A stretch of 64,000 bases of DNA, from the NCBI GenBank assembly GCA_964473905.1, contig CAYYQY010000001.1, positions 2,963-66,962 of the forward strand, read 5' to 3'. Below are positions 753 through 26,587 of this stretch, piece after piece. Positions within the stretch are counted from its first letter, which is position 1. Every line of letters starts with the position of its first letter. Below the pieces are notes generated by a model that worked only from the letters and a program-made list of their open reading frames with translations, had not been told where the DNA came from and did not search any database. The DNA comes from an uncultured Dehalococcoidales bacterium. GTDB taxonomy: Bacteria; Chloroflexota; Dehalococcoidia; Dehalococcoidales; CAYYQY01. The position numbers and the translations under genes were made by a program.

Positions 753-2243
753 ATGGCTACTATAGCTAGGACCATCAAAGAACAGCTCGCCGAGATTGCG
801 GGTAAGGGAAATGTTCTTGACTCCCCGGATGTGATGGAACGCTATGGCACGGATAATAGCGTTGCACGTCCGGGGCTTTTTACTTGTGTGGTTCGTCCCA
901 GGGATGCCAGGGAAACACAGAAGATTATCCGGCTGGCTAATGAGGCCAGGTTTGCCGTTGTGCCACACAGCTCAGGTATTCACTTCAACGGTGATGCCAT
1001 TCCCAAAGTTGGTGGTGTGGTTCTTGACATGGAGCGAATGAACGGCATTACCGAGATAGACGAGGAAAACAGGGTAGCCCATATTGAGGTCGGCGTGACC
1101 TGGGAACAACTACAAACGGCGCTGGAAGCCAGGGGATACCGCAGTGTAATGCCGCTGCTACCCCATGCCTCAAGGTCCGTGATTTCTGATTGGCTGGAGA
1201 GGGAACTGCCGGTGGTTCAGATTCACGAATATGCTGACCCGATGCTGAGTCTGCACGTCATCTGGGGAAACGGCGAGGAATTTGTCACGGGCACAGCGAG
1301 CATAAACACTTTCCGCGACCCGGAGCATCCGGAATGCCTGGCTGATGGCGTGATACCGGACGGTCCGGGACCGATTAACTTTGATGAATTTTTATATGGT
1401 GCGCAGGGGACCATCGGCGCGGTGTCCTGGGGTATAACCAAGATAGAAGAAATCCCCACCATCACCAAGACTTTCTTCATCCCCACACATAAAGCTGAAG
1501 AGGCTATTGAGCCGCTATACAAAATATTACGGCGTAGAGTAGGCTACGAATGCCTGCTTCTTAATAATTTAAACTTGGCTACTATCCTTGCCGAAAGATG
1601 GCCCGCACAATTTGATGAGCTCAGGGATATTCTGCCGCCGTGGACAGTTATACTGGTAATTGGTGCCCTCAAGCGGCGGCCGGAGGAGAAAATAGCCTAT
1701 CAGGAGAATTTCTTACGTGACATGATGCTGAGCTATTTCCCCAACCTTGAGCCGCTTACTACTTTACCCGGGGCAATGATGGTTAATAAACAGATCCCAG
1801 AAATGCTGCGTAAACCCTGGCCCGCGGACAAAACATACTGGAAGCACGCCTATAAGGGAGGCTGCCAGGACTTGACCTTCATGACTACTCTGGACCGGGT
1901 AGAACGGTTCCTCGTCGTAGCAGGTGAGGTTGCCACCCGGTGCCAGTATCCCTATCAAGATATGGGCTGCTATATCCAGCCGGTAGAGAACGGCCGTGCC
2001 TGCCAGTTACAGTTCAATTTCTACTACGACCCCACCAGTGAAGCCGAAAAAAACAAGGTCCGCAGGCTTTATGATGATACGGCGGCTGCCATGCTGGAAA
2101 AGGGGGCCTATTTTAGCCGTCCATATGGTGCAGTCGCCGACATGGTCTACCGCAGAAACGGTGATTACACCTCCATACTCAAGAGAGTAAAAAAGTTGTT
2201 CGACCCCAATAACATAATGAATCCGGGCAACCTGTGCTTCTGA
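753..2243 (+). CDS. FAD-binding oxidoreductase (FAD-linked oxidase, GlcD-like PCMH fold)
   Basis: 496-aa ORF. FAD_binding_4-like N-terminal half (VVPHSSGIHFNGDAIP, VVLDMERMN, VGVTWEQL) and FAD-oxidase C-terminal region. GGAGG SD before the ATG. Confidence 0.85.
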   Translation: MATIARTIKEQLAEIAGKGNVLDSPDVMERYGTDNSVARPGLFTCVVRPRDARETQKIIRLANEARFAVVPHSSGIHFNGDAIPKVGGVVLDMERMNGITEIDEENRVAHIEVGVTWEQLQTALEARGYRSVMPLLPHASRSVISDWLERELPVVQIHEYADPMLSLHVIWGNGEEFVTGTASINTFRDPEHPECLADGVIPDGPGPINFDEFLYGAQGTIGAVSWGITKIEEIPTITKTFFIPTHKAEEAIEPLYKILRRRVGYECLLLNNLNLATILAERWPAQFDELRDILPPWTVILVIGALKRRPEEKIAYQENFLRDMMLSYFPNLEPLTTLPGAMMVNKQIPEMLRKPWPADKTYWKHAYKGGCQDLTFMTTLDRVERFLVVAGEVATRCQYPYQDMGCYIQPVENGRACQLQFNFYYDPTSEAEKNKVRRLYDDTAAAMLEKGAYFSRPYGAVADMVYRRNGDYTSILKRVKKLFDPNNIMNPGNLCF

Positions 2244-2266
2244 ACAACAGCGGTAAGGGGGATAAC

Positions 2267-3556
2267 ATGCCTGAGACCAAGCAATTTACCCTGGGGCTAA
2301 ACCTGGAAGACTACGCCTACGATGCCCGGCATTGCGTAAGCTGCCATCAATGCCGGTGGATAGATCTTAACTACGTGCCCGGTCTTGATTTTTCCTGGAA
2401 GTGCCCACCCTGGCAGTATAAACAACTGGATGCCTATGGCGCCGAGGGCAAGAGCCGAATAGTGTATGACCTACTCAAGGGAAGACTGGACTGGTCTGCC
2501 CCGAAGCTAAAGGACATAGTCTACGAGTGCTGCCTCTGCGGCGCTTGTGATATGGGCTGCAAGCGTAACCTTGATTTCGAAAGGCAGATGATGCTGGAAG
2601 CGCTGCGCGGTAAGTTCGTAGAGGAAGGGTACGGCCCCCTGCCCGCTCATGAACAGTGGACACGTAACATAGAAGCAAAAGGCAACCCCTTCGGTGATGA
2701 ACCAGCGAGACGTTTAGACTGGCTGCCGGCAGATGTTAACCCGCAGGATAAGGCCGACTTGCTCTATTTTGTCGGCTGCCGGGCATCTTTCAGAGATACG
2801 GATATAAGCAAGGCAACAGCCAGGATTCTCTACGCCGCCGGGGCAGACTTCATGCTAATGGCGGATGAGCCGTGTTGCGGCCACTTCTTATTCGCTACCG
2901 GTCAGGTAGAGAAAGCAAGGCAGACAGCCAAAAATAACCTCAAGCTAATCCGGGAGACCGGTGCCAGTAAAGTAATATTCAGCTGTGCCCACGGCTATAA
3001 AACGGTAAAGGTGGATTATCCCAAACTGTTGGGTATCTCCACTTCAGACCTGGGTTTTGAAGTGGTGCACCTGGTGGAGATGGTTGAGGAATGGGTAAAG
3101 GACGGCACCCTCAAGCTAGATAATAAAATCGATATGAAGGTAACCTATCATGACCCGTGTAATCTGGGTCGGCTCAGCGACCCCTGGGTACACTGGGAGG
3201 GGACACGCGGTGAGTGGGGGATTCTTGAACCTACGCGTGAGTTCCGGCGCGGTCTCAATGGCGTCTACGAACCGCCGCGCAGCATTCTCAGGGCTATTCC
3301 GGGCATTGAACTGGTAGAGATGTTCCGCCATCACGAAAATGCCTGGTGCTGTGGCAGTGACGGTGGCGTGAAGCAGGCTTATCCTGACCTCGCTTCGTGG
3401 ACAGCCGGTGAAAGGCTGAGGGAGGCGAGTGCCGTTGGCGCCGAAGCCATCGTATCCTGCTGCCCCGCCTGCCGGGAAAGCTTCAGTGAAGTGGCTGACA
3501 GCAGCATGGCTGTTTTAGATATCACGGAATTACTAATCAGGGCTATGGGGAAGTAA
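2267..3556 (+). CDS. (Fe-S)-binding protein with two CCG cysteine-rich domains (GlcF/HdrD/LutA-like)
   Basis: Frame of ORF 2234-3556. Start moved to ATG 2267, which is preceded by AAGGGGG. N-terminal ferredoxin-like Cys clusters (CVSCHQC, CCLCGACDMGC) and two CCG-type repeats (VGC..., PCCG, DPCN, WCCG, CCPAC). The long ORF overlaps the upstream stop. Confidence 0.85.
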   Translation: MPETKQFTLGLNLEDYAYDARHCVSCHQCRWIDLNYVPGLDFSWKCPPWQYKQLDAYGAEGKSRIVYDLLKGRLDWSAPKLKDIVYECCLCGACDMGCKRNLDFERQMMLEALRGKFVEEGYGPLPAHEQWTRNIEAKGNPFGDEPARRLDWLPADVNPQDKADLLYFVGCRASFRDTDISKATARILYAAGADFMLMADEPCCGHFLFATGQVEKARQTAKNNLKLIRETGASKVIFSCAHGYKTVKVDYPKLLGISTSDLGFEVVHLVEMVEEWVKDGTLKLDNKIDMKVTYHDPCNLGRLSDPWVHWEGTRGEWGILEPTREFRRGLNGVYEPPRSILRAIPGIELVEMFRHHENAWCCGSDGGVKQAYPDLASWTAGERLREASAVGAEAIVSCCPACRESFSEVADSSMAVLDITELLIRAMGK

Positions 3557-3573
3557 GGCCGAGGAGGTTAGAT

Positions 3574-5262
3574 ATGAGCCGGACTACAGCCAAGGAACCA
3601 ATAACAGAAGAGATGTACCGGGCACTGGAGTGTATCGTTGGTCCCAGCTTTGTAACCACCGAGCCAGATGAATGTCAGGCATACACCGGCCGCGGCTGCT
3701 GGATGGAGCTCTACTGGTGGTCAGATATCTCCCGCCGGCCGGCTGGTGTTATTCTACCCGGGACTGCGGTAGAGGTAGCCCGGATAATTAAAGTATGCAA
3801 CCAATATGATATTCCCTATCTTCCCGGCAGCACCTTTGGCTGGATGCCGCTCTCCGGTAGCAATCTGCGCGATGACTTTCTGGTTATTGACCTGAAGCGC
3901 ATCAACCACCTGGAGATAGATGATAAGAATATGTACGCCGTCATCGGACCGGGAGTAATCTATGCCCACCTCCAGGCGGAAGCGATGAAGAAGGACCTCT
4001 ATACTATGCTGCCATCGGGTGGCGGCAGCGTTGGCGTAATAGCCAACCAGCTAACCTTGGGAGTTGGCTCTCTCTGCTACCGGATAACCGCTTCGTCTAT
4101 GCGGCGCATGAACGGGGTGGAATGGGTCAGTCCAGAGGGGGAGATAGTGCGCATGGGGTCTCTGGTAAACGGCAATGATAGTGGTTACTGGCGCGGTGGG
4201 CCTGGCCCCGGTCTCCTCGGCATGTTGAAAGGCTACTCTTCTTGGACGGGCAGCATGGGTATTGTAACCAGCATGGCACTCAAGCTCTACCCGTTTCAGC
4301 CCGAGAGACTTGAACCCGAAGGTATTGGCGGGGACAGTGCCGTTAAGCTGCCACCAAGAATGCTATGGCACAATATCACTTTCCCCACCGAAGAAGCCCT
4401 GCAAAAAACCATGCGTGAACTGGGGAAAGCCCAGATTGCAGCCTACGTAAACCGGGTCTCGGCTTACTGGAGAGACATAGCCAAGTGCCGGGGTACGGCC
4501 GAGTACCGGCGTTTATTCCAGGAATCATGGGGGAAGGTGACACCGGAGACCGTGGCGGCCATGCACGTTGTTCGAGTCCTGCTTATCGGTTATACCTCGC
4601 CAGAACAGCTGGATTACGAGGAACGGGTACTGGCAGACATAGTGGAGGAAAACGGGGGCACCCTGCGCCGCACCCGGCAGACCGATGAATCCTGTTTCCT
4701 GTATGCCAATGCCCCGGACGTATGGGTAATGACCGGAAACTGGGCGTTGATTACGGTAGGTACCGAGAGCCTGAGATGCGCCCTTAAAATGGGTGACGAT
4801 TTTCATAAAAGGTGGACTGAGGGCTATTTGAATGACGCTATGGACCAGCACCGCGAGATTCCCTGGTATATGCCCCTGGACTTCGCCCGCGCTGCCTACG
4901 CCGAGACAGACACCTATGCCGATTCCCAGAAGCTGGACCCGGAACGCCCCGAGTTTGACGAGGGAATACTGCGTAGACAGCTACAGTTTTTTGAGTCGGT
5001 AATGCCGTCCATAGAGGCAACGACCGGTTGGCCTTCCTTTTTCAGCACATACACCAACTGCAGCTATACCTCCGACGCTACCCGGTTCAATACACCGGTC
5101 TGGGTAGACAGATTTCAAAAGGAGTTCAATCCCATGGGGCTATCCAATACCGGATTTCCCTATTTCGGCGATAAGCATGCCGCCATTATGCCCGAAATAA
5201 TAACGGATGAAGTCAGGGATAAAGTTAAGGAAGTGCAACAGGCCCGCTGGCGAGGCCTTTAA
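3574..5262 (+). CDS. FAD-binding oxidoreductase, long divergent paralog (GlcE/GlcD-like)
   Basis: 562-aa ORF with GAGGAGG SD. FAD_binding_4-like region (PAGVILPGTAVEVARIIKVCNQYDIPYLP, LVIDLKRINHLEID). Confidence 0.75.
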   Translation: MSRTTAKEPITEEMYRALECIVGPSFVTTEPDECQAYTGRGCWMELYWWSDISRRPAGVILPGTAVEVARIIKVCNQYDIPYLPGSTFGWMPLSGSNLRDDFLVIDLKRINHLEIDDKNMYAVIGPGVIYAHLQAEAMKKDLYTMLPSGGGSVGVIANQLTLGVGSLCYRITASSMRRMNGVEWVSPEGEIVRMGSLVNGNDSGYWRGGPGPGLLGMLKGYSSWTGSMGIVTSMALKLYPFQPERLEPEGIGGDSAVKLPPRMLWHNITFPTEEALQKTMRELGKAQIAAYVNRVSAYWRDIAKCRGTAEYRRLFQESWGKVTPETVAAMHVVRVLLIGYTSPEQLDYEERVLADIVEENGGTLRRTRQTDESCFLYANAPDVWVMTGNWALITVGTESLRCALKMGDDFHKRWTEGYLNDAMDQHREIPWYMPLDFARAAYAETDTYADSQKLDPERPEFDEGILRRQLQFFESVMPSIEATTGWPSFFSTYTNCSYTSDATRFNTPVWVDRFQKEFNPMGLSNTGFPYFGDKHAAIMPEIITDEVRDKVKEVQQARWRGL

Positions 5263-5337
5263 TCCTGAGCTAAAGGTAACAGGCTCATTTTCGAGTAATC
5301 ACACAAGCTGGGCAAATGAAGGAGGTTAACAGGAATC

Positions 5338-6888
5338 GTGGCTGAAAAATACGATGTAGTTATTATCGGTGCCGGGGCGGCGGGGCTCACCGTTGGCGCC
5401 ATCCTGTCGGCCAGAGAGCAAAAGAAAGTCCTGGTAATAGAGAAGGAAGAGGCGATAGGCGGACGTCTGGCTTCGTTTGTGGGTGGCAAAAAAGGTGTTT
5501 CCTTCCTGGGGAAAGAGCTAACCATCCCGGAGTACGAGAAAGTGCTTGGCTCGGTGAATACCTGGGTGGTTCGAGCCAGCCCTGACCTGCCAGCTATCTG
5601 GGAACAGGGACTGCTGGATGGCTATACCTTTGAGGCCGGTGTCCATGCCACTTTCTGGGGGGATAAGGGCCGGGTAGCCTGTGTGCTTGATTACCTGGGT
5701 AAGCACAGTGACCTGCCCGGTAACGAAGGGTTTGCCGTCATTGACACCAGGGATAACAAGTGGTACCAGGTACAAAGAGGAGGTAAATACGACTGGCTGA
5801 GTGATGAGGCTAGCCTGGAGACCAAGACGCTACTTCGGGAAATGACCAGCATGTCCCTGGAAGAAGCGGCCAGGTACGACCTTATCTCTTTCGGACAGTG
5901 GCTTAACGAGCACACTAAAAACCGCGAGGTCTATGAGTATCTGGCAGCGCTCGCCTCCATTCACATGGTCATGGGTGAGCCTGACATGATGCCGGCTGGC
6001 GATTTTCTTAAGTTCATGGCGGTGGCCAGTGATATCGGCATGAACCTGATAACGGGTTCCACCGGCACCGCCGGACCGCCGGGCTTTGTTGACGTTGCCG
6101 TGAAACTGGCCGGGGCATTCCGTGAAAGCGGTGGTGAAATAATGCTGGGCACACCGGTAACGGAGGTCATGATAGCTGACCAAAAAGCTTGTGGCGTCAT
6201 CATCCAGACTAAAGACGGCCCCCGGCAAATCGAAGCCCGGGATGTTGTCTGCACGGTACCCCCCAATCATATTTTCGGCATACTGCCGGAGAAACACTTT
6301 CCATCCGAGTTCGTTACCGATATTAAGGAGCGCTTCTGGGGTGCCGGCATGCTATCCGGGTATATCGGGCTTAAACGAAATATCATAGAAGACAAGGCCG
6401 TTAATCCCAGAAGCTGGTTACTGGTACCCTCGCTTATAAAAGCTAGCGAGGGCTTTATCGGCGATGTGGATATCATCACTTTTATGTCCTCCAACTTTAA
6501 TCCCCTTAGAGCACCGGAGGGTAAGCACCTGTGGGAGTTCTCCATAGCCCTCACCGATAAAGAGATGCATGACACCGGCAAGGTAAACCGGGTTGTGGAT
6601 GAAGCTACCGCGTTTATGCAGAGAAACTTCCCTGCCTGGCGGGATGACATGGAGTGGGAGCTCTGGACAACATCTGACGAAGGCTACGGTATATGGCCTC
6701 CTATCGGTAAGCGCCGGCCGGACGTGAAGTGCCCCTGGATAGAAGACCTCTACTTCGCCGGTGACAGCTATGGAGCTCACCGCTGGGGCGGCGGCCTGGA
6801 TGCCGCCATCCATTCCGCCGTACTGTGTCTGGATAGACTGGGCAGTATGGATTACTCAACGGAAATACTGCCCGCCTACCACCGGTAG
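5338..6888 (+). CDS. NAD(P)/FAD-dependent oxidoreductase (phytoene-desaturase/CrtI-like amine-oxidase fold)
   Basis: 516-aa ORF with GTG start and GGAGG SD. N-terminal dinucleotide-binding motif YDVVIIGAGAAGL...VLVIEKEEAIGGR and C-terminal FAGDS motif. Confidence 0.8.
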   Translation: MAEKYDVVIIGAGAAGLTVGAILSAREQKKVLVIEKEEAIGGRLASFVGGKKGVSFLGKELTIPEYEKVLGSVNTWVVRASPDLPAIWEQGLLDGYTFEAGVHATFWGDKGRVACVLDYLGKHSDLPGNEGFAVIDTRDNKWYQVQRGGKYDWLSDEASLETKTLLREMTSMSLEEAARYDLISFGQWLNEHTKNREVYEYLAALASIHMVMGEPDMMPAGDFLKFMAVASDIGMNLITGSTGTAGPPGFVDVAVKLAGAFRESGGEIMLGTPVTEVMIADQKACGVIIQTKDGPRQIEARDVVCTVPPNHIFGILPEKHFPSEFVTDIKERFWGAGMLSGYIGLKRNIIEDKAVNPRSWLLVPSLIKASEGFIGDVDIITFMSSNFNPLRAPEGKHLWEFSIALTDKEMHDTGKVNRVVDEATAFMQRNFPAWRDDMEWELWTTSDEGYGIWPPIGKRRPDVKCPWIEDLYFAGDSYGAHRWGGGLDAAIHSAVLCLDRLGSMDYSTEILPAYHR

Positions 6889-6899
6889 TATAAAAGTAA

Positions 6900-7346
6900 A
6901 TGGCAGTTGATAATAGAGGTGACACGGTGAAAATAGAAAGAATTGACCATATCGCTATTAACGTTAGAGAGTTGGGCAAAGCGGAGCGGTTCTTCACCGA
7001 TTTGCTGGGGACAGAATTCAGCAGTTCTGCTGTATTTCGGGAGCTTGATTTAAGGTCATCGATTGAACCCTTTGGCGTAGAGCTGGTCGAACCGCTAACC
7101 CCGGACGGCCCAACGGCCAACGCTATAGAGAAAAGAGGGGAAGGTGTATCCCTGATTTCATTCAAGGTAGAGAGCGTGCAAAAGGCGATAGAAGAGATGA
7201 AATCACGGGGGATAAGGCAGGTAGGCATGGTAGACCGGCCTAAAATGAAAGCGGCCGTATTTCACCCGAAAGATACCTACGGCGTAATGATAGAGTTCGT
7301 TGAATACAAATCAGAGCACCCTGCAGCTAACATTCGTGAGGAGTGA
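6900..7346 (+). CDS. VOC (glyoxalase/bleomycin-resistance/dioxygenase) family protein, methylmalonyl-CoA-epimerase-like
   Basis: 148-aa ORF with IDHIAINV...F and VMIEFVE beta-alpha-beta-beta-beta modules. The alternative GTG at 6927 has a better SD (GAGGTG). Confidence 0.7.
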   Translation: MAVDNRGDTVKIERIDHIAINVRELGKAERFFTDLLGTEFSSSAVFRELDLRSSIEPFGVELVEPLTPDGPTANAIEKRGEGVSLISFKVESVQKAIEEMKSRGIRQVGMVDRPKMKAAVFHPKDTYGVMIEFVEYKSEHPAANIREE

Positions 7347-7504
7347 GAAATAGTCTGCTAACCAATATCTCATAATTATCACCAAGGCAATTAACCCAAA
7401 TAGCCAAAGAGAGGGAACCTTTAAGAGTTAGTCGGAATTGCAGCCGTTCTTATCACCCCCGTAATCCTGAATATGCAATTTATTAACTAATAAGGAGTTG
7501 TTTT

Positions 7505-8830
7505 ATGGAAAAGCATTTAGCTAAAGCATTGGAGAAATTCGCCCAACCGGTTTGCGAACCAAGAGACGAAAACAGACCAAACGAAGATAGACCCATGGTA
7601 GTCAGACCGCCGCTGAGCTCTTCGCAGGTATACCGCTGGATAACCGAGGGCGCTCATCAGGACTACTCATTATGGTACCGCCACCAGCTACAGTGGAGAA
7701 AACTACCGCTGGAACAGAAACACAAGGCGATGTCAAACCGCATGGCACGGGAAGACGGCATGTTCCGTACGCTGCTACCGGAGGTTTACGGTGAAGAGGG
7801 GCTACAGATACTGGATGCGGTTTACGCCAGCTTTGCGCCTGATATGTATTATAGAGACCATGCCCGTGGATTAATAAAAGAGCCGGAGAAGATAGGCCCC
7901 AGGCAGGTAGCATCCTATATTTTGACCAACTACGATATCATCGGCGTCGGACCTCTCATCGTCATGGAGGCATCGGACGAGAGAGTCAGGCTTTGCCCCA
8001 TAGGCCATGATTCAACCGAGCTTTGCTCTTACGGCACGCGTAAAGGCGACTGGAGAATGTGTGCCTACACCGGTGAGTGGGAAACGCAGATTACCAAGCT
8101 CATGAATCCCAAACTGCGGTGCTACACCAACAAAGCCAAGAACTGCGGTGACTGGTGCTGTGAGATAACCATTGAGTGGGATACCGGAGAGGAACCCCCA
8201 AATAATACGCTACCCCCGGTAACCGGCAGACCTGAGCCGGTTAGACCGGAGCTCGAGCATTCCGATGTCTATAACTGGATAGTCAATGGTGCCCCCAAAG
8301 ACGCCAAAGCATGGCTGGACCCTGTTCCCATCCGCCATATACCCATGGACCAGAAGCTTAATATCTGTTCACGAAAGTGGGCGGCAGAGACCGGTGCCAT
8401 GAGAACCATGATGGCCGAGGTCTACGGGGACAAGGGATATGAAACTATAGAGAAAGCCTATGCCAGTATGGCACCGCCTGAATACGAACTCGCCAGGATC
8501 AGGGGGTTAACAGGCGAACCGGACGAGATGGGGCCACTGGAAGCGGCACGTTATATTTGCACACTGTATGATATCGCCGGACGAGCACCGCTATCCATAC
8601 CGGAAGCCTCAGATGAATGTGTCCGCATACAGCACTTTGTCGGTCTTCCGGAGACCTGCTACTATTTGGCGCGTAAGGGAGACTGGCGGATGTGCGTCGC
8701 TGAAACCGCTTTTGAGAGAAATCTAACCAAGATGATGAATCCCAGGCTCAGAGCACAGCGTACCAAGAGCAAGATTTACGGCGACTACTGCTGTGAACTT
8801 ACCATTGACTGGGACCCGGATTTTAAATAG
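7505..8830 (+). CDS. Cys-rich protein of two tandem ~190-aa repeats; each repeat resembles (from memory) the ATC-hydrolase-like domain family
   Basis: 441-aa ORF with AAGGAG SD. Residues 33-226 and 246-437 align end to end. Shared motifs are VRP, VY.WI, EVYG, PL...EASDE.VR, RKGDWRMC, MNP.LR and GD.CCE.TI.WD. Confidence 0.8.
   Translation: MEKHLAKALEKFAQPVCEPRDENRPNEDRPMVVRPPLSSSQVYRWITEGAHQDYSLWYRHQLQWRKLPLEQKHKAMSNRMAREDGMFRTLLPEVYGEEGLQILDAVYASFAPDMYYRDHARGLIKEPEKIGPRQVASYILTNYDIIGVGPLIVMEASDERVRLCPIGHDSTELCSYGTRKGDWRMCAYTGEWETQITKLMNPKLRCYTNKAKNCGDWCCEITIEWDTGEEPPNNTLPPVTGRPEPVRPELEHSDVYNWIVNGAPKDAKAWLDPVPIRHIPMDQKLNICSRKWAAETGAMRTMMAEVYGDKGYETIEKAYASMAPPEYELARIRGLTGEPDEMGPLEAARYICTLYDIAGRAPLSIPEASDECVRIQHFVGLPETCYYLARKGDWRMCVAETAFERNLTKMMNPRLRAQRTKSKIYGDYCCELTIDWDPDFK
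7802..7990 (+). repeat. source copy of a 189-nt dispersed repeat (partner at 9463-9651)
   Basis: Hand alignment at constant offset 1661. 7802-7867 is identical to 9463-9528 (66/66). I counted about 20 mismatches and no indels over the next 123 nt. Confidence 0.9.
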
Positions 8831-9383: not shown

Positions 9384-9462
9384 CGTGGTGAAAGAGGCAC
9401 CGGTTTCTCCATAGTTAATAGAAGCTGGTTAACGCTAATCCACTCCAGTCGCTATCCAGTCT

Positions 9463-9651
9463 CTACAGATACTGGATGCGGTTTACGCCAGCTTTGCGCC
9501 TGATATGTATTATAGAGACCATGCCCGTTGACTAATAAAAGAGCCGGAGAAGATAGGCCCCAGGCAGGTGGCAGCCTATATTTTAGGCAATTACGATATA
9601 CTAGGCGTCGGCCCTCTTATTGTTTTAGAGGCATCAGACGAGAGAGCCAGC
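9463..9651 (+). pseudogene. fragment of a paralog of the 7505-8830 gene (equivalent to codons ~100-162) with an in-frame stop
   Basis: Translates as LQILDAVYASFAPDMYYRDHAR*LIKEPEKIGPRQVAAYILGNYDILGVGPLIVLEASDER. The GGA codon of the intact gene is TGA here. No start codon and no upstream or downstream homology. Confidence 0.85.
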
Positions 9652-9693
9652 AAATCGCCCTAGATTTTCTAAAGAACAGCCCTACATCCACTT

Positions 9694-25048: not shown

Positions 25049-26587
25049 ATGATACTGGGCGACATAGTCAAGCGCAATGCCCGCAGGTATCCCCATAAGC
25101 CGGCCCTGATATTCCATGAGGTGCGGCTGAGTTTCGCCGAGTTTTACCGCCGGGTAAACAGTATGGCCAACGGGCTGCGCGGTCTGGGTATGAACCAGGG
25201 TGATAGAGTGGGGATTCTTCTGGATAACTGCCACCAGTATGCCGAGCTTTACCTGGCAATACCGGCAGGAGGGGGGATTGCCGTGCCCGTGAACACCGCG
25301 CTAAGTGCCCAGGAGATAGCCTATATTCTCCAAAACGCGGACGTAAATATACTGGTATTCGGGGAAAGGCTGGCTGCTCTCGCCGGATCACTGCAAAGAG
25401 AGATTACCACGCTCAAGACGCTGATAGTAATCGGCACGCCTACCCCGGACACACAGGGCTACGAACAACTGATTTCACAATATACGTCTGAAGAACCGGA
25501 GGTCAGCATCGGCGAGCAGGACGTGGCCTGTCTGCTGTACACCAGCGGCACCACCGGCGTACCTAAAGGAGCCATGATAACCCACCGGGGCATGATAGAA
25601 AGCGCGCTCAACTGCCTGCTCGCCTGTCACTACCAACATGACGACATAGTGCTGGTAATGACGCCTCTATTCTGGTCTACGGGGATATTGGCTAACATTA
25701 TGCCGCTTTTCTATACGGGCGGCACCGTGGTTATCACGGATGATTTCTCCACGGAAGGTATCCTGGAAGTGATACAAAAAGAAAAAATCACCGTAACTGC
25801 TATGGCACCGCCAACAGCCATCGCCATAGCCGAACATCCAGGGCTCGGCAGCTATGATATAAGCAGCCTGTGCGTTATCATCCTCGGCGGAGGCCCCATG
25901 CCCCTGGAGGCTCACAAGCGAGCCATAAAGACGATGGGTAATATATTCTATAAGTTCTACGCCCTGAGCGAGACCGGCCCGGCAAGCTGCCTGCCCCCGG
26001 AGGAGCAGGTAATAGAGGGCGCCCCGGATAAAATGAAGCGGCTGGCTTCAAGCGGCCGGGAAGCCACCAATATTGGGTTAAGAGTTGTTAACGAAGAAGG
26101 CAGGGACGTGCTGCCCGGTCAGGTTGGCGAGGTGATTATACGAGGCGATAGCCTGACCAGGGGATACTGGAGGATGCCGCAGGCTACCGAAGAAGCACTG
26201 AAGGGCGGCTACATACATACCGGCGACCTGGCCTCGCTGGATGAAGACGGTTACCTGTACCTGGTGGGGAGAAAGAAAGACCTGATAGTCAGCCACGGTA
26301 AAACCATATATGCCGTGGAGGTGGAGGAAGTAATCGGGCAGCATACAGACGTGGTTGAGGTGGCCGTGATGGGTATACCGCAGGGTAGCGGGGAAGAAAC
26401 CATCAAGGCTATCGTGGTAATCAGGGGCGGGGCGAAGACCGCGGTTGAAGACATCCTGGAGTTCTGCCGGGAGCGCCTGCCGGACTATGCCTGCCCGGAG
26501 TCCGTGACCTTTATGGATAAGCTGCCGCGGAACCCCTCGGGTAAAGTGCTGAAGAGAGTGCTTCTGGAAAGATACGGCGTTGACTAA
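25049..26587 (+). CDS. AMP-dependent acyl-CoA synthetase/ligase (ANL superfamily)
   Basis: 512-aa ORF with the AMP-binding signature LLYTSGTTGVPKGA, YALSETG, GDLASLDEDGYLYLVGRKKD and a C-terminal PRNPSGKVLKR lysine. Confidence 0.9.
   Translation: MILGDIVKRNARRYPHKPALIFHEVRLSFAEFYRRVNSMANGLRGLGMNQGDRVGILLDNCHQYAELYLAIPAGGGIAVPVNTALSAQEIAYILQNADVNILVFGERLAALAGSLQREITTLKTLIVIGTPTPDTQGYEQLISQYTSEEPEVSIGEQDVACLLYTSGTTGVPKGAMITHRGMIESALNCLLACHYQHDDIVLVMTPLFWSTGILANIMPLFYTGGTVVITDDFSTEGILEVIQKEKITVTAMAPPTAIAIAEHPGLGSYDISSLCVIILGGGPMPLEAHKRAIKTMGNIFYKFYALSETGPASCLPPEEQVIEGAPDKMKRLASSGREATNIGLRVVNEEGRDVLPGQVGEVIIRGDSLTRGYWRMPQATEEALKGGYIHTGDLASLDEDGYLYLVGRKKDLIVSHGKTIYAVEVEEVIGQHTDVVEVAVMGIPQGSGEETIKAIVVIRGGAKTAVEDILEFCRERLPDYACPESVTFMDKLPRNPSGKVLKRVLLERYGVD

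Follow-up and report, generated by a model that had tools for sequence, protein, structure and literature searches.

Two sets of proteins recently put forward as candidates, both unproven, for anaerobic benzene activation, i.e. BzS1_12970/80/90 (Musat et al. 2026, PMC13416013) and the ORM2a 'Magic' proteins 24–26 (Toth et al. 2026, PMC13101534), are the described systems that most resemble the locus reported here. In both, three adjacent genes of a strict anaerobe encode an FAD subunit with an FAD-oxidase C tail, a Cys-rich Fe-S subunit and an FAD subunit in which the N-terminal FAD domain alone is detectable; the published flavoprotein is GlcDEF-like, shares at most 23% identity with GlcDEF and has distant syntenic homologues that are said to have other functions (PMC13416013, PMC13101534). 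The family to which these proteins belong has been described, though not characterised. GlcDEF of E. coli, in turn, comprises two FAD_binding_4 subunits and one subunit with two [4Fe-4S] and two CCG sites, encoded in the order D-E-F, and its GlcD subunit contains the motif HAGDGNMH in the catalytic region. In D-2-hydroxy-acid dehydrogenases, the histidines that bind the metal come from this motif.

The window analysed here, a stretch of 64,000 nucleotides from a 1.63-Mb Dehalococcoidales genome from a salt lake, carries at 753–8830 six genes, of which the first three (hereafter the trio) match the published sets in architecture, order and subunit size (54.6/48.4/61.8 kDa here and 54.5/46.5/65.8 kDa there; PMC13416013, PMC13101534), a match made through the published descriptions. 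The published hosts are Desulfobacterota or Pelotomaculum, whereas this one, also a strict anaerobe, belongs to the Chloroflexota; the trio lies beside genes for a CrtI-like flavoprotein, a VOC protein and a tandem protein of V4R fold, and has neither an AMP ligase nor a MaoC, type III CoA transferase or beta-oxidation gene as neighbour. We consider it probable that the six genes form a two-module operon, in which the trio would be a soluble heterotrimeric oxidoreductase of a distinct anaerobe family and genes 4–6 an accessory module acting on the same compound class.

Organization of the proposed operon

A sequence-only reading of this region had counted seven genes while naming six proteins; the open reading frames (ORFs) at 753–8830 number six, all on the plus strand. 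The co-direction and spacing that it gave agree with the ORF coordinates, genes 1 and 2 overlapping by 10 nt and the following gaps measuring 17, 75, 11 and 158 nt. The AT-rich, non-coding leader/promoter region upstream (283–752) was also real, with a GC content of 0.42–0.44 (vs 0.50–0.57 in the genes), no ORF longer than 66 aa and a GGAGG ribosome-binding site (741–745) 8 nt ahead of the gene 1 ATG at 753. The one weak sigma-70-like promoter match in this spacer (483–511) did not rise above chance; neither did the frequency of terminator-like sites (11 observed, 10.0 expected from shuffled sequence). Genes for a CoA ligase, AFOR, ALDH or UbiD are absent from the operon, as is any ferredoxin or NAD(P)-binding module detectable by Pfam domain search, and the trio is not accompanied by glcB or glcG.

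A flavoprotein trio distinct from glycolate oxidase

Gene 1 (753–2243, 496 aa, ~55 kDa) encodes flavoprotein subunit A, with a VAO/PCMH-type FAD domain (FAD_binding_4, PF01565, 80.1 bits) and a divergent cap domain of which FAD-oxidase_C (PF02913, 32.1 bits) matched the tail portion only. The Fe-S subunit, encoded by gene 2 (2234–3556, 440 aa, ~48 kDa), contains two ferredoxin-type CxxCxxC motifs (at residues 34 and 99; Fer4_8 was also detected) and two CCG domains (at 214 and 372; PF02754, 90.4 bits over two stretches) and has no membrane helix (max KD19 1.09); its best NCBIfam match was TfrB (158 bits, cut-off 385). Gene 3 (3574–5262, 562 aa, ~62 kDa) encodes flavoprotein subunit B, whose sole Pfam match was FAD_binding_4 (PF01565, 64.2 bits). 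The cap domain of subunit B was missed by Pfam, and the AF2 model (pLDDT 82.5) predicts a complete two-domain VAO/PCMH fold. These Pfam and NCBIfam profile searches, run on each window protein, bore out the domains assigned earlier to the products of genes 1–5, including the GlcDEF-like combination of two flavoproteins with a CCG/Fe-S protein.

The resemblance to GlcDEF stops at this architecture and does not extend to identity as a glycolate oxidase. Tested against the GlcD profile (TIGR00387, cut-off 567.9 bits), gene 1 scored 72 bits and the second flavoprotein 52 bits, and no gene in the genome reached the cut-off; gene 2 scored 44 bits against a GlcF cut-off of 333, and its alignment with E. 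coli GlcF (23% identity, E 3e-15) spans the full length. Neither flavoprotein contains the motif HAGDGNMH, nor does any of the 151 family members examined, and in gene 1 an invariant Y407-x-Q409-P410 stands in place of the GlcD HxGDGNxH motif. Subunit B also differs from the 350-aa GlcE of E. coli in its length (562 aa) and its complete cap domain. The phylogenetic placement suggested earlier was carried out against E. coli GlcD and GlcE, both of which fell outside the two flavoprotein clades (A and B, each with 95% support; 60 sequences in clade A).

Judged by sequence and gene order, the trio is a member of a large, widespread family of strict anaerobes, distinct from GlcDEF, whose trios normally have the order FAD-FeS-FAD and a long third subunit; both features, previously taken for oddities of a glycolate oxidase, are conserved hallmarks of this separate family. 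GTDB species genomes contain at least 562 subunit B relatives, from Dehalococcoidia, Desulfobacterota, Bathyarchaeia, Jordarchaeia, Actinomycetota and Syntrophomonadaceae, and 41 trios in the order A-FeS-B occurred in 40 of 79 loci. Subunit B evolves fastest, its identity to the window copy being below that of A and of the Fe-S subunit in every one of the 41 trios. The host genome alone encodes 8 A-like, 12 FeS-like and 16 B-like proteins, alongside 7 AFOR and 4 UbiD proteins, and holds about eight paralogous trio sets, a further difference from the BzS1 and ORM2a systems.

Genes 4–6

The product of gene 4 (5338–6888, 516 aa) is an amine-oxidase/CrtI-fold FAD protein (Amino_oxidase, PF01593, 54.8 bits) that reached no NCBIfam equivalog. 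On sequence, it belongs to a conserved, uncharacterised group of proteins of ~516 aa, with 164 relatives at E ≤ 1e-20, including proteins of 50–53% identity within beta-oxidation-like clusters of Syntrophomonas curvata and Desulfatibacillum. Gene 5 (6900–7346, 148 aa) encodes a single-domain VOC protein (Glyoxalase/VOC, PF00903, 51.9 bits) closest to methylmalonyl-CoA epimerase (TIGR03081, 68.8 bits, under the cut-off of 114.95); its orthologues (75–79% identity) adjoin those of gene 6 in three other loci (L021, L022 and L011).

Gene 6 (7505–8830, 441 aa) encodes a tandem Cys-rich protein that had been described as duplicated and ATC-hydrolase-like. The tandem duplication is real, since the two halves share 44% identity (E 1e-54), and the likeness holds at the level of fold and of sub-threshold matches but not of significant sequence similarity: no Pfam match was obtained even at E ≤ 10, three homologues gave weak matches to PF14196 on the Cys-rich C-terminal part, and clusters of ATC_hydrolase, DUF6125 and V4R are among its structure neighbours in the Atlas. 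In the AF2 model (pLDDT 86.5), each half is predicted to adopt the fold of TRAPP Bet3 (Z 9.4), of the V4R/Bet3 sensors PoxR (Z 8.7), DmpR (Z 8.1) and MopR, and of the V4R protein MJ1460 (Z 6.6). The three invariant cysteines of each half (C174, C186 and C219; C385, C397 and C430) are reminiscent of the Cys3-Glu zinc site in DmpR (PMC7264223), although their spacing differs, and, unlike DmpR-type regulators, gene 6 combines a tandem duplication with the lack of an AAA+ or DNA-binding output domain. Its most likely role is to bind a metal and a ligand of hydrophobic or aromatic nature. In contrast to the V4R/Bet3 and ATC_hydrolase families, the gene 6 family is tiny, with just 12 representatives among 1.84 billion, and a search of 400 other Dehalococcoidia genomes did not find it. 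Directly downstream of the operon are a pseudogene fragment of gene 6 and a recombination scar.

Linkage of the trio with genes 4–6

Conserved linkage was found for part of the operon: genes 1–3 are tightly linked everywhere, whereas genes 4–6 accompany the orthologous trio in just three of five loci and in differing orders. One orthologous locus (L021) reads FeS-B-VOC-gene 6 and another (L022) B-gene 4-gene 6-OYE with the VOC gene on the opposite strand, and in a same-genus genome a gene 4-VOC-gene 6-VOC array runs convergently towards a paralogous FeS-B pair, with ALDH and UbiD genes alongside. In the other two orthologous loci, the trio precedes unrelated genes (CBS and hydrolase, or isochorismatase and Na/H exchanger), so its coupling to genes 4–6 is not obligatory. 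Elsewhere, genes 4 and 6 share a type of CoA-ester catabolic cluster, with long ACADs, SDR, DUF35 and SCPx-type thiolase, MaoC, CoA ligase and UbiD/UbiX. The combination of six genes matches no characterised pathway, as had been noted, and a catabolic role is likely.

The six genes might instead be two unrelated abutting units, genes 4–6 belonging to another pathway or being mobile cargo, with no six-gene pathway. The trio does stand without genes 4–6 in nearly all 79 loci, no trio lies near the gene 6 homologues of Proteobacteria or the gene 4 homologues of Syntrophomonas and Desulfatibacillum, the widest gaps are those at the module border (75 nt) and ahead of gene 6 (158 nt), and the pseudogene fragment and scar follow directly. 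However, gene 4, VOC or gene 6 genes directly adjoin an FeS-B pair in four independent arrangements (the window, L021, L022 and L011), and co-direction of the six genes with no above-chance terminator signal between them also speaks against separate units, which we regard as unlikely.

Proposed function and alternative chemistries

Under the two-module reading, the most likely role of the region is that of a dehydrogenase module which works independently of oxygen on an aromatic or otherwise hydrophobic substrate. This substrate class is drawn from the gene neighbourhoods of trio paralogues, because no member of the family has a known biochemical function, and these paralogues may act on different compounds. 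Among the 79 loci, trios occur with AFOR (9 loci), ALDH (6), OYE-like proteins (4) and UbiX/UbiD. In a Desulfatiglandales locus, the trio is accompanied by a sigma-54 activator of XylR_N/V4R type, EtfAB, a CoA ligase and a Mo-hydroxylase of the xanthine-dehydrogenase family; another trio locus holds HpaB-like, Fe-ADH and pyrogallol-transhydroxylase-like genes, and one trio adjoins corrinoid methyltransferase genes and a Mo-hydroxylase. One VAO-fold subunit would take two electrons (as hydride) from the organic substrate onto FAD, the substrate-specific subunit probably being the fast-evolving B, whose cap domain varies between paralogues. Electrons would then run through the Fe-S subunit, via its two [4Fe-4S] clusters and its CCG clusters, to a candidate acceptor such as ETF, a quinone or ferredoxin. 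The substrate would probably be an alcohol, alkyl group or acid that is aromatic, phenolic or otherwise hydrophobic, and not a small 2-hydroxy acid, and the product may be an aldehyde. Genes 4–6 would add further steps on the same compound class, the CrtI-like flavoprotein possibly catalysing C-C desaturation, saturation or isomerisation, next to the putative epimerase-like VOC protein.

A more specific chemistry would make the trio an oxygen-independent 4-alkylphenol or benzylic-alcohol hydroxylase/dehydrogenase, working PCMH-like via a quinone methide, with aromatic aldehydes passed on to AFOR or ALDH. The best-scoring matches of the B-family profile are 4-phenol oxidisers (vanillyl-alcohol dehydrogenase, 122 bits; PCMH-type, 111 bits; D-lactate dehydrogenase, 96 bits), and the best VIA-align match of the subunit B model is pinoresinol hydroxylase (Z 31.1, 472 aligned residues), with EUGO/VAO/PCMH at Z 24–27. 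The aromatic-catabolism context of many family members also fits, with AFOR or ALDH next to many trios and, in the Desulfatiglandales locus, an aromatic-responsive regulator of XylR type, a CoA ligase and a Mo-hydroxylase on the flanks; UbiD carboxylase/decarboxylase systems are present in the host genome as well. Against this, identity to the VAO/PCMH subfamily is only 16–20% and the alignment covers the FAD domain only, the B family does not conserve the loop with the phenolate-binding Tyr of VAO/PCMH-type enzymes (N..YGG in the chains matched), margins over the D-lactate dehydrogenase group are small, and the structure comparison does not discriminate between a PCMH-like and a D-lactate-dehydrogenase-like active site (Z 31 vs 28–29). 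Moreover, the characterised enzymes have a c-type cytochrome or O2 as partner, whereas here an Fe-S/CCG protein would take that place in a predicted heterotrimer with a second flavoprotein; the operon has no AFOR or ALDH, and the published relatives reach high abundance on benzene and toluene, neither of which can form a quinone methide (PMC13416013 section 4.3.1). Taken together, we find this chemistry quite unlikely.

Improbable, in our view, is a reductive or flavin-based electron-bifurcating/confurcating trio, with two flavins of different potential and an Hdr-like subunit. Two FAD subunits beside an HdrB/D-like CCG protein, EtfAB after one homologous trio and three to four EtfAB pairs in the host genome agree with the idea, which is discussed in PMC13416013 (section 4.3.2) but is speculative in both 2026 papers; the characterised architecture closest to it, GlcDEF, does not bifurcate (PMC13101534), and the operon lacks the ferredoxin or NAD(P)-binding module.

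That the trio is a true glycolate, D-lactate or other 2-hydroxy-acid dehydrogenase (a GlcDEF or Dld-II orthologue in shuffled order) in an operon for hydroxy-acid catabolism, as earlier suggested, is very improbable given the profile scores, missing motif and tree described above and some eight paralogous sets in 1.63 Mb, hard to square with a single housekeeping enzyme, despite the shared domain set, the full-length GlcF alignment, the fit of the subunit B model to D-lactate and D-2-hydroxyglutarate dehydrogenases (Z 27–29) and the auto-name 'glycolate oxidase' of some family database entries.

Organization of the operon

The region 753-8830 (+) is a real cluster of six co-directional long ORFs, one fewer than the seven genes counted from the sequence alone: g1 (753-2243, +, 496 aa), g2 (2234-3556, +, 440 aa), g3 (3574-5262, +, 562 aa), g4 (5338-6888, +, 516 aa), g5 (6900-7346, +, 148 aa) and g6 (7505-8830, +, 441 aa). 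The tight spacing described in the sequence-only reading was confirmed, with g1 and g2 overlapping by 10 nt and later gaps of 17, 75, 11 and 158 nt, as was the AT-rich non-coding leader (283-752; GC 0.42-0.44 versus 0.50-0.57), which contains no credible ORF. The motif GGAGG lies immediately 5' of the first ATG (g1). Neither terminator-like hairpins within the operon nor matches in a promoter scan exceeded the expectation from shuffled sequence, and none of the six products contains a membrane-helix-like segment, the sole hydrophobic peak being the Rossmann motif of g4. The source MAG is 1.63 Mb in size and 95% complete, and DNA near-identical to this stretch is present in salt-lake metagenomes, all of the runs listed being of DNA and none of RNA.

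The g1-g3 trio and glycolate oxidase

Pfam and NCBIfam agreed with the domain calls made earlier for g1-g5. Within the trio, g1 (subunit A) displays FAD_binding_4 and the tail of FAD-oxidase_C, g2 (the Fe-S subunit) contains Fer4_8 and two CCG domains, and g3 (subunit B) matches FAD_binding_4 alone. The cysteine motifs of g2 are C34xxC37xxC40...C57P and C99xxC102xxC105xxxC109, with CCG at 214 and 372.

The likeness to GlcDEF that had been read from the sequence holds for architecture, the trio likewise comprising two FAD_binding_4 subunits and one 2x[4Fe-4S]/2xCCG subunit, and fails for identity as a glycolate oxidase. Scores against the GlcD equivalog TIGR00387 (cut-off 567.9 bits) were only 72.0 bits for g1 and 51.9 bits for g3, no gene in the genome reaching this cut-off (best 88.7 bits), and g2 scored 44.1 bits against the GlcF equivalog NF008434 (cut-off 333 bits). 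E. coli GlcF aligned with the whole of g2 (23% identity); E. coli GlcD gave only fragmentary alignments with g1 and g3. The cap domain of GlcD/LDHD-type enzymes carries the motif HxGDGNxH, which supplies metal-binding histidines. This motif (HAGDGNMH at residue 386 in E. coli GlcD) is missing from g1 and g3, GDGN was found in none of the 151 collected A and B members of the trio family, and subunit A has an invariant Y-x-Q-P in its place. In a FastTree phylogeny of 153 sequences, g1-type (60) and g3-type (91) proteins formed two clades with 95% support each, and E. coli GlcD and GlcE fell outside both. The hallmarks of GlcD are thus missing from g1-g3, and these sub-cut-off scores, the absent HAGDGNMH and the separate clades make a glycolate oxidase very unlikely.

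Likeness to the trios of benzene degraders

A closer counterpart is found in recently published candidates for anaerobic benzene activation. In a benzene-grown sulfate reducer, BzS1_12970/80/90 represent about one fifth of the proteome (Musat et al., PMC13416013). The first (54.5 kDa) is an FAD protein that also has an oxidase C domain, the second (46.5 kDa) is an Fe-S protein rich in Cys, and the third (65.8 kDa) is again an FAD protein, with the N-terminal domain only. They are syntenic in Pelotomaculum BPL and in Ca. Anaerobenzenivorax ORM2, whereas the syntenic homologues of NaphS2 and Desulfosarcina variabilis are distant (23-42% identity) and 'likely serve other functions'; no structural predictions were given (PMC13416013). 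The ORM2a 'Magic' proteins 24-26 (WAC08368-70) were the top three in protein abundance, and their AF3 model resembles GlcDEF at an identity of at most 23% (Toth et al., PMC13101534). Neither of these 2026 studies demonstrated activity, the proposal being proteomic only (PMC13416013, PMC13101534). The trio described here (54.6, 48.4 and 61.8 kDa) matches the BzS1 proteins in order, domains and size, as judged from their published description, whereas the neighbours of the 'Magic' cluster (CoA ligase, MaoC, type III CoA transferase and beta-oxidation genes) are missing beside it. We read the operon as a variant of a recently recognized kind of trio, whose nearest published system is itself uncharacterized.

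In an alignment of 62 Fe-S subunits, the cysteines of the first CCG motif (g2 residues 214-215) were less than 90% conserved, though intact in g2, and the second CCG domain kept every Cys. The lower conservation of the former echoes ORM2a protein 25, in which two Cys motifs are incomplete (PMC13101534).

Predicted fold of subunit B

The AF2 model of g3 (pLDDT 82.5) predicts a complete two-domain VAO fold, although Pfam detects the FAD domain alone. By VIA-align, the model gave Z 31.1 over 472 residues against the PCMH-type enzyme pinoresinol hydroxylase, Z 28-29 against D-lactate dehydrogenases and Z 24-27 against EUGO, VAO and PCMH. The PCMH-type and D-lactate dehydrogenase groups tied as Foldseek matches, and the g3-family sequence profile favoured the 4-phenol-oxidizing group (122 bits versus 96). 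This VAO/PCMH subfamily is characterized by a phenolate-binding Tyr/Tyr/Arg triad, of which the alignment covered the first Tyr loop and not the C-terminal pair; this loop reads N-F-A-Y-G-G in the matched chains and has no conserved Tyr in the B family. In this subfamily the electron acceptor is a cytochrome c partner (PCMH) or O2, whereas the partner gene in the trio encodes an Fe-S/CCG protein; no cytochrome gene was found in the operon. Given the tied fold matches and the unconserved Tyr loop, the fold does not settle the chemistry of subunit B.

Size and distribution of the trio family

A profile (A1) built from 40 relatives of g3 and searched against GTDB species genomes recovered at least 562 relatives, with hosts in Dehalococcoidia, Desulfobacterota (Desulfarculus, Desulfobacteraceae, Desulfatiglandales and the TRIP culture), Bathyarchaeia, Jordarchaeia, Actinomycetota and Syntrophomonadaceae. 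Among 79 loci retained and annotated by tblastn, the order g1-g2-g3 was found in nearly all of those with upstream room, and 40 contained complete trios (41 in total). The D-F-E gene order and the long third subunit, taken earlier for oddities, recur in this way throughout and are hence traits of the family. In all 41 trios it was subunit B that diverged most from the g3 copy (mean identity 37.5%, compared with 46.7% for A and 47.7% for the Fe-S subunit). Of 401 Dehalococcoidia genomes sampled evenly, about 35 encode a full-length relative of subunit B (best E<=1e-90); the 12 genomes from one family of small complete genomes encode none. The cluster members of ten candidate matches were exclusively MAG proteins, from Dehalococcoidia or Thermodesulfobacteriota.

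The genome itself encodes about eight trios, on contigs C1, C3 (twice), C14, C24, C26, C51 and C59, with gene totals of 8 A-like, 12 FeS-like, 16 B-like, 7 AFOR and 4 UbiD. The trio is thus a member of a distinct, widespread and paralogue-rich family of anaerobes. We found no literature on Dehalococcoidia with glycolate oxidase, AFOR and UbiD. Outside the window, several of the roughly seven further trios and lone B-like genes adjoin AFOR, UbiD or UbiX, and FAD_binding_4 genes are unusually many for a genome of 1.63 Mb.

Genomic neighbourhoods of homologous trios

The recurrent neighbours of the trio across the 79 loci were AFOR (9 loci), ALDH with a small protein (6 loci) and OYE-like reductases (4 loci), along with UbiX/UbiD. 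On a Desulfatiglandales chromosome (L090:4976-17923), a divergent XylR_N/V4R sigma-54 activator is followed by the trio, EtfAB and a CoA ligase, and the locus also encodes a xanthine-dehydrogenase-family enzyme, a fused 2Fe-2S/molybdopterin hydroxylase; we regard it as a tidy candidate for an aromatic-catabolic operon around a homologous trio. At one locus from Dehalococcoidales the trio is accompanied by HpaB/AbfD-like, Fe-ADH, pyrogallol-transhydroxylase-like, UbiX and ALDH genes, and one Chloroflexota trio adjoins two UbiD genes and one AFOR gene. On a 2.97-Mb contig (L027:1-11617), the genes immediately before the trio encode components of a corrinoid methyltransferase (Pterin_bind, B12-binding and URO-D), together with a DctP transporter and a Mo-hydroxylase of three subunits, a setting that resembles O-demethylation. 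These neighbourhoods, which belong to paralogues and not to the operon itself, suggest a role in the metabolism of aromatics, phenolics and aldehydes.

The CrtI-like flavoprotein, the VOC protein and their linkage to the trio

Protein g4 matched Amino_oxidase (PF01593) over residues 15-495 with 54.8 bits (cut-off 19.8), and its scores against the NCBIfam equivalogs CrtI, CrtD, HpnE and PPOX all lay far below the cut-offs. Its relatives (164 matches at E<=1e-20) make up a well-conserved group with lengths of about 516 aa, named only 'phytoene desaturase family' or 'FAD-dependent oxidoreductase'. A PDB sequence search with g4 returned Rossmann-motif matches only, and no structure was found for it in the Atlas. 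In Syntrophomonas curvata and Desulfatibacillum, orthologues that are 50-53% identical to g4 are found in clusters of the form HpaB-ACAD-SDR-thiolase-DUF35-MaoC-[g4]-CoA ligase. Protein g5 contains a Glyoxalase/VOC superfamily domain, its best equivalog being methylmalonyl-CoA epimerase (TIGR03081; 68.8 bits, below the cut-off of 114.95).

Linkage was compared at five loci with a subunit B at least 67% identical to g3. These read FeS-B-VOC-g6 (L021), B-g4-g6-OYE with VOC on the opposite strand (L022), trio-CBS-hydrolase (L029, a genome of the same genus), FeS-B-isochorismatase-Na/H exchanger (L028), and B with a second B-like gene and two distant amine-oxidase genes (L024). In the same-genus genome, a block g4(66%)-VOC(78%)-g6(50%)-VOC converges on a paralogous FeS-B pair that is preceded by an amine oxidase and ALDH and adjoined by UbiX/UbiD. 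From these arrangements, the accessory block stands recurrently, and not obligatorily, beside an FeS-B pair; conserved linkage holds for g1-g2-g3, while g4-g6 accompany the orthologous trio only at some loci.

The tandem V4R-fold protein

Pfam returned no match for g6, even at E<=10, and a PDB sequence search gave a chance-level match only. The two halves of the protein are 44% identical. Of 1.84 billion cluster representatives, just 12 matched the domain at E<=1e-3, near-length homologues numbered 26, and g6 was not found in 400 other Dehalococcoidia genomes. The AF2 model (pLDDT 86.5) predicts two copies of a Bet3/V4R/H-NOX-type fold, one half matching Bet3 with Z 9.4 over 147 of 161 residues, and the fold matching PoxR (Z 8.7), DmpR (Z 8.1) and the V4R protein MJ1460 (Z 6.6); Foldseek assigned V4R/Bet3 a probability of 1.00, yet at E ~3e-3. 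On this model, g6 is a rare tandem V4R-fold protein, of a family without any studied member. Its description as 'ATC-hydrolase-like' is fair for the fold and not for the family: structure neighbours in the Atlas include ATC_hydrolase, DUF6125 and V4R clusters, and three homologues matched PF14196 at 10.5-14.7 bits, under the gathering score of 28.1, with g6 itself giving no PF14196 match at E<=10.

Three Cys are invariant in each half and have a Glu next to them (E220, E431), a set that may recall the Cys3-Glu zinc site of DmpR (C151, E172, C177, C185; PMC7264223), although spacing and order differ. A 284-aa homologue (P0026, NCBI source) is a fusion of a single g6 domain with a receiver domain of the response-regulator type (PF00072, E 1e-14), a hint that in some organisms this fold may serve in signalling. 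A single-domain paralogue (~226-239 aa, ~40% identical) is encoded elsewhere in the genome (G000:C36:229-840, -; L013), and three related genomes likewise encode forms with one domain.

Homologues of g6 in Steroidobacter denitrificans and other Proteobacteria are located among long ACADs, SDRs, DUF35 and SCPx thiolase, CoA ligases, DUF1295 and UbiD/UbiX genes. We found no literature on the Steroidobacter denitrificans homologue and its neighbours, and a role in steroid catabolism, suggested by this homologue, was set aside, its support being generic beta-oxidation, UbiD and DUF1295 neighbours only.

Proposed function and significance

The A, Fe-S and B subunits would form a heterotrimer in which electrons would pass from FAD to [4Fe-4S], then to the CCG clusters and on to an acceptor. 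The substrate is probably aromatic or hydrophobic, and the trio and g4-g6 modules may be functionally coupled. A more far-reaching reading, which we consider possible but on the whole unlikely, is that the family constitutes a general oxygen-independent 'activation/dehydrogenation toolbox' for inert aromatic or hydrophobic compounds. The proposed benzene-activating enzyme would then be just one family member. In uncultured Dehalococcoidales the family would have grown to about eight paralogues, each with its own substrate specificity, conferred by the variable cap domain of B. Under the same reading, g6 would be a dedicated ligand-binding or delivery subunit, or a sensor, for the flavoenzymes of the operon and, if so, a new type of accessory component.

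How strict anaerobes attack benzene and similarly inert compounds has been an open question for decades, and in 2026 two groups implicated a GlcDEF-like FAD/Fe-S trio on proteomic grounds alone. To this we add that the trio architecture is that of a very large family, spread over at least six anaerobic lineages and without the GlcD active-site motif, that one small-genome salt-lake Dehalococcoidales contains about eight copies, and that the 'FAD-domain-only' subunit has a predicted full VAO fold and is the fastest-evolving of the three. The family offers a comparative framework and many candidate enzymes for the chemistry, with substrates probably easier than benzene, and also a clue to what subsurface Dehalococcoidia live on.

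Surroundings of the operon

A gene for a small HTH protein lies 5' of the operon leader. The same contig also encodes, about 70 nt before the window start (L009:2215-2895, +; G000:C1), a protein of 226 aa that contains a B12 activation domain of the MetH type (PF02965, E 2e-9). On the 3' side, the CrtI-like, VOC and V4R-fold genes are followed by glycosyltransferase genes. An AMP-binding CoA ligase (25049-26587, +; match G000:C1:28032-29132) is located about 16 kb 3' of the operon, one of at least 11 in this genome. Just 3' of g6 lies a pseudogene remnant (9457-9663, +) that is 83% identical to g6 residues 98-166 and is broken by one TGA and one TAG.
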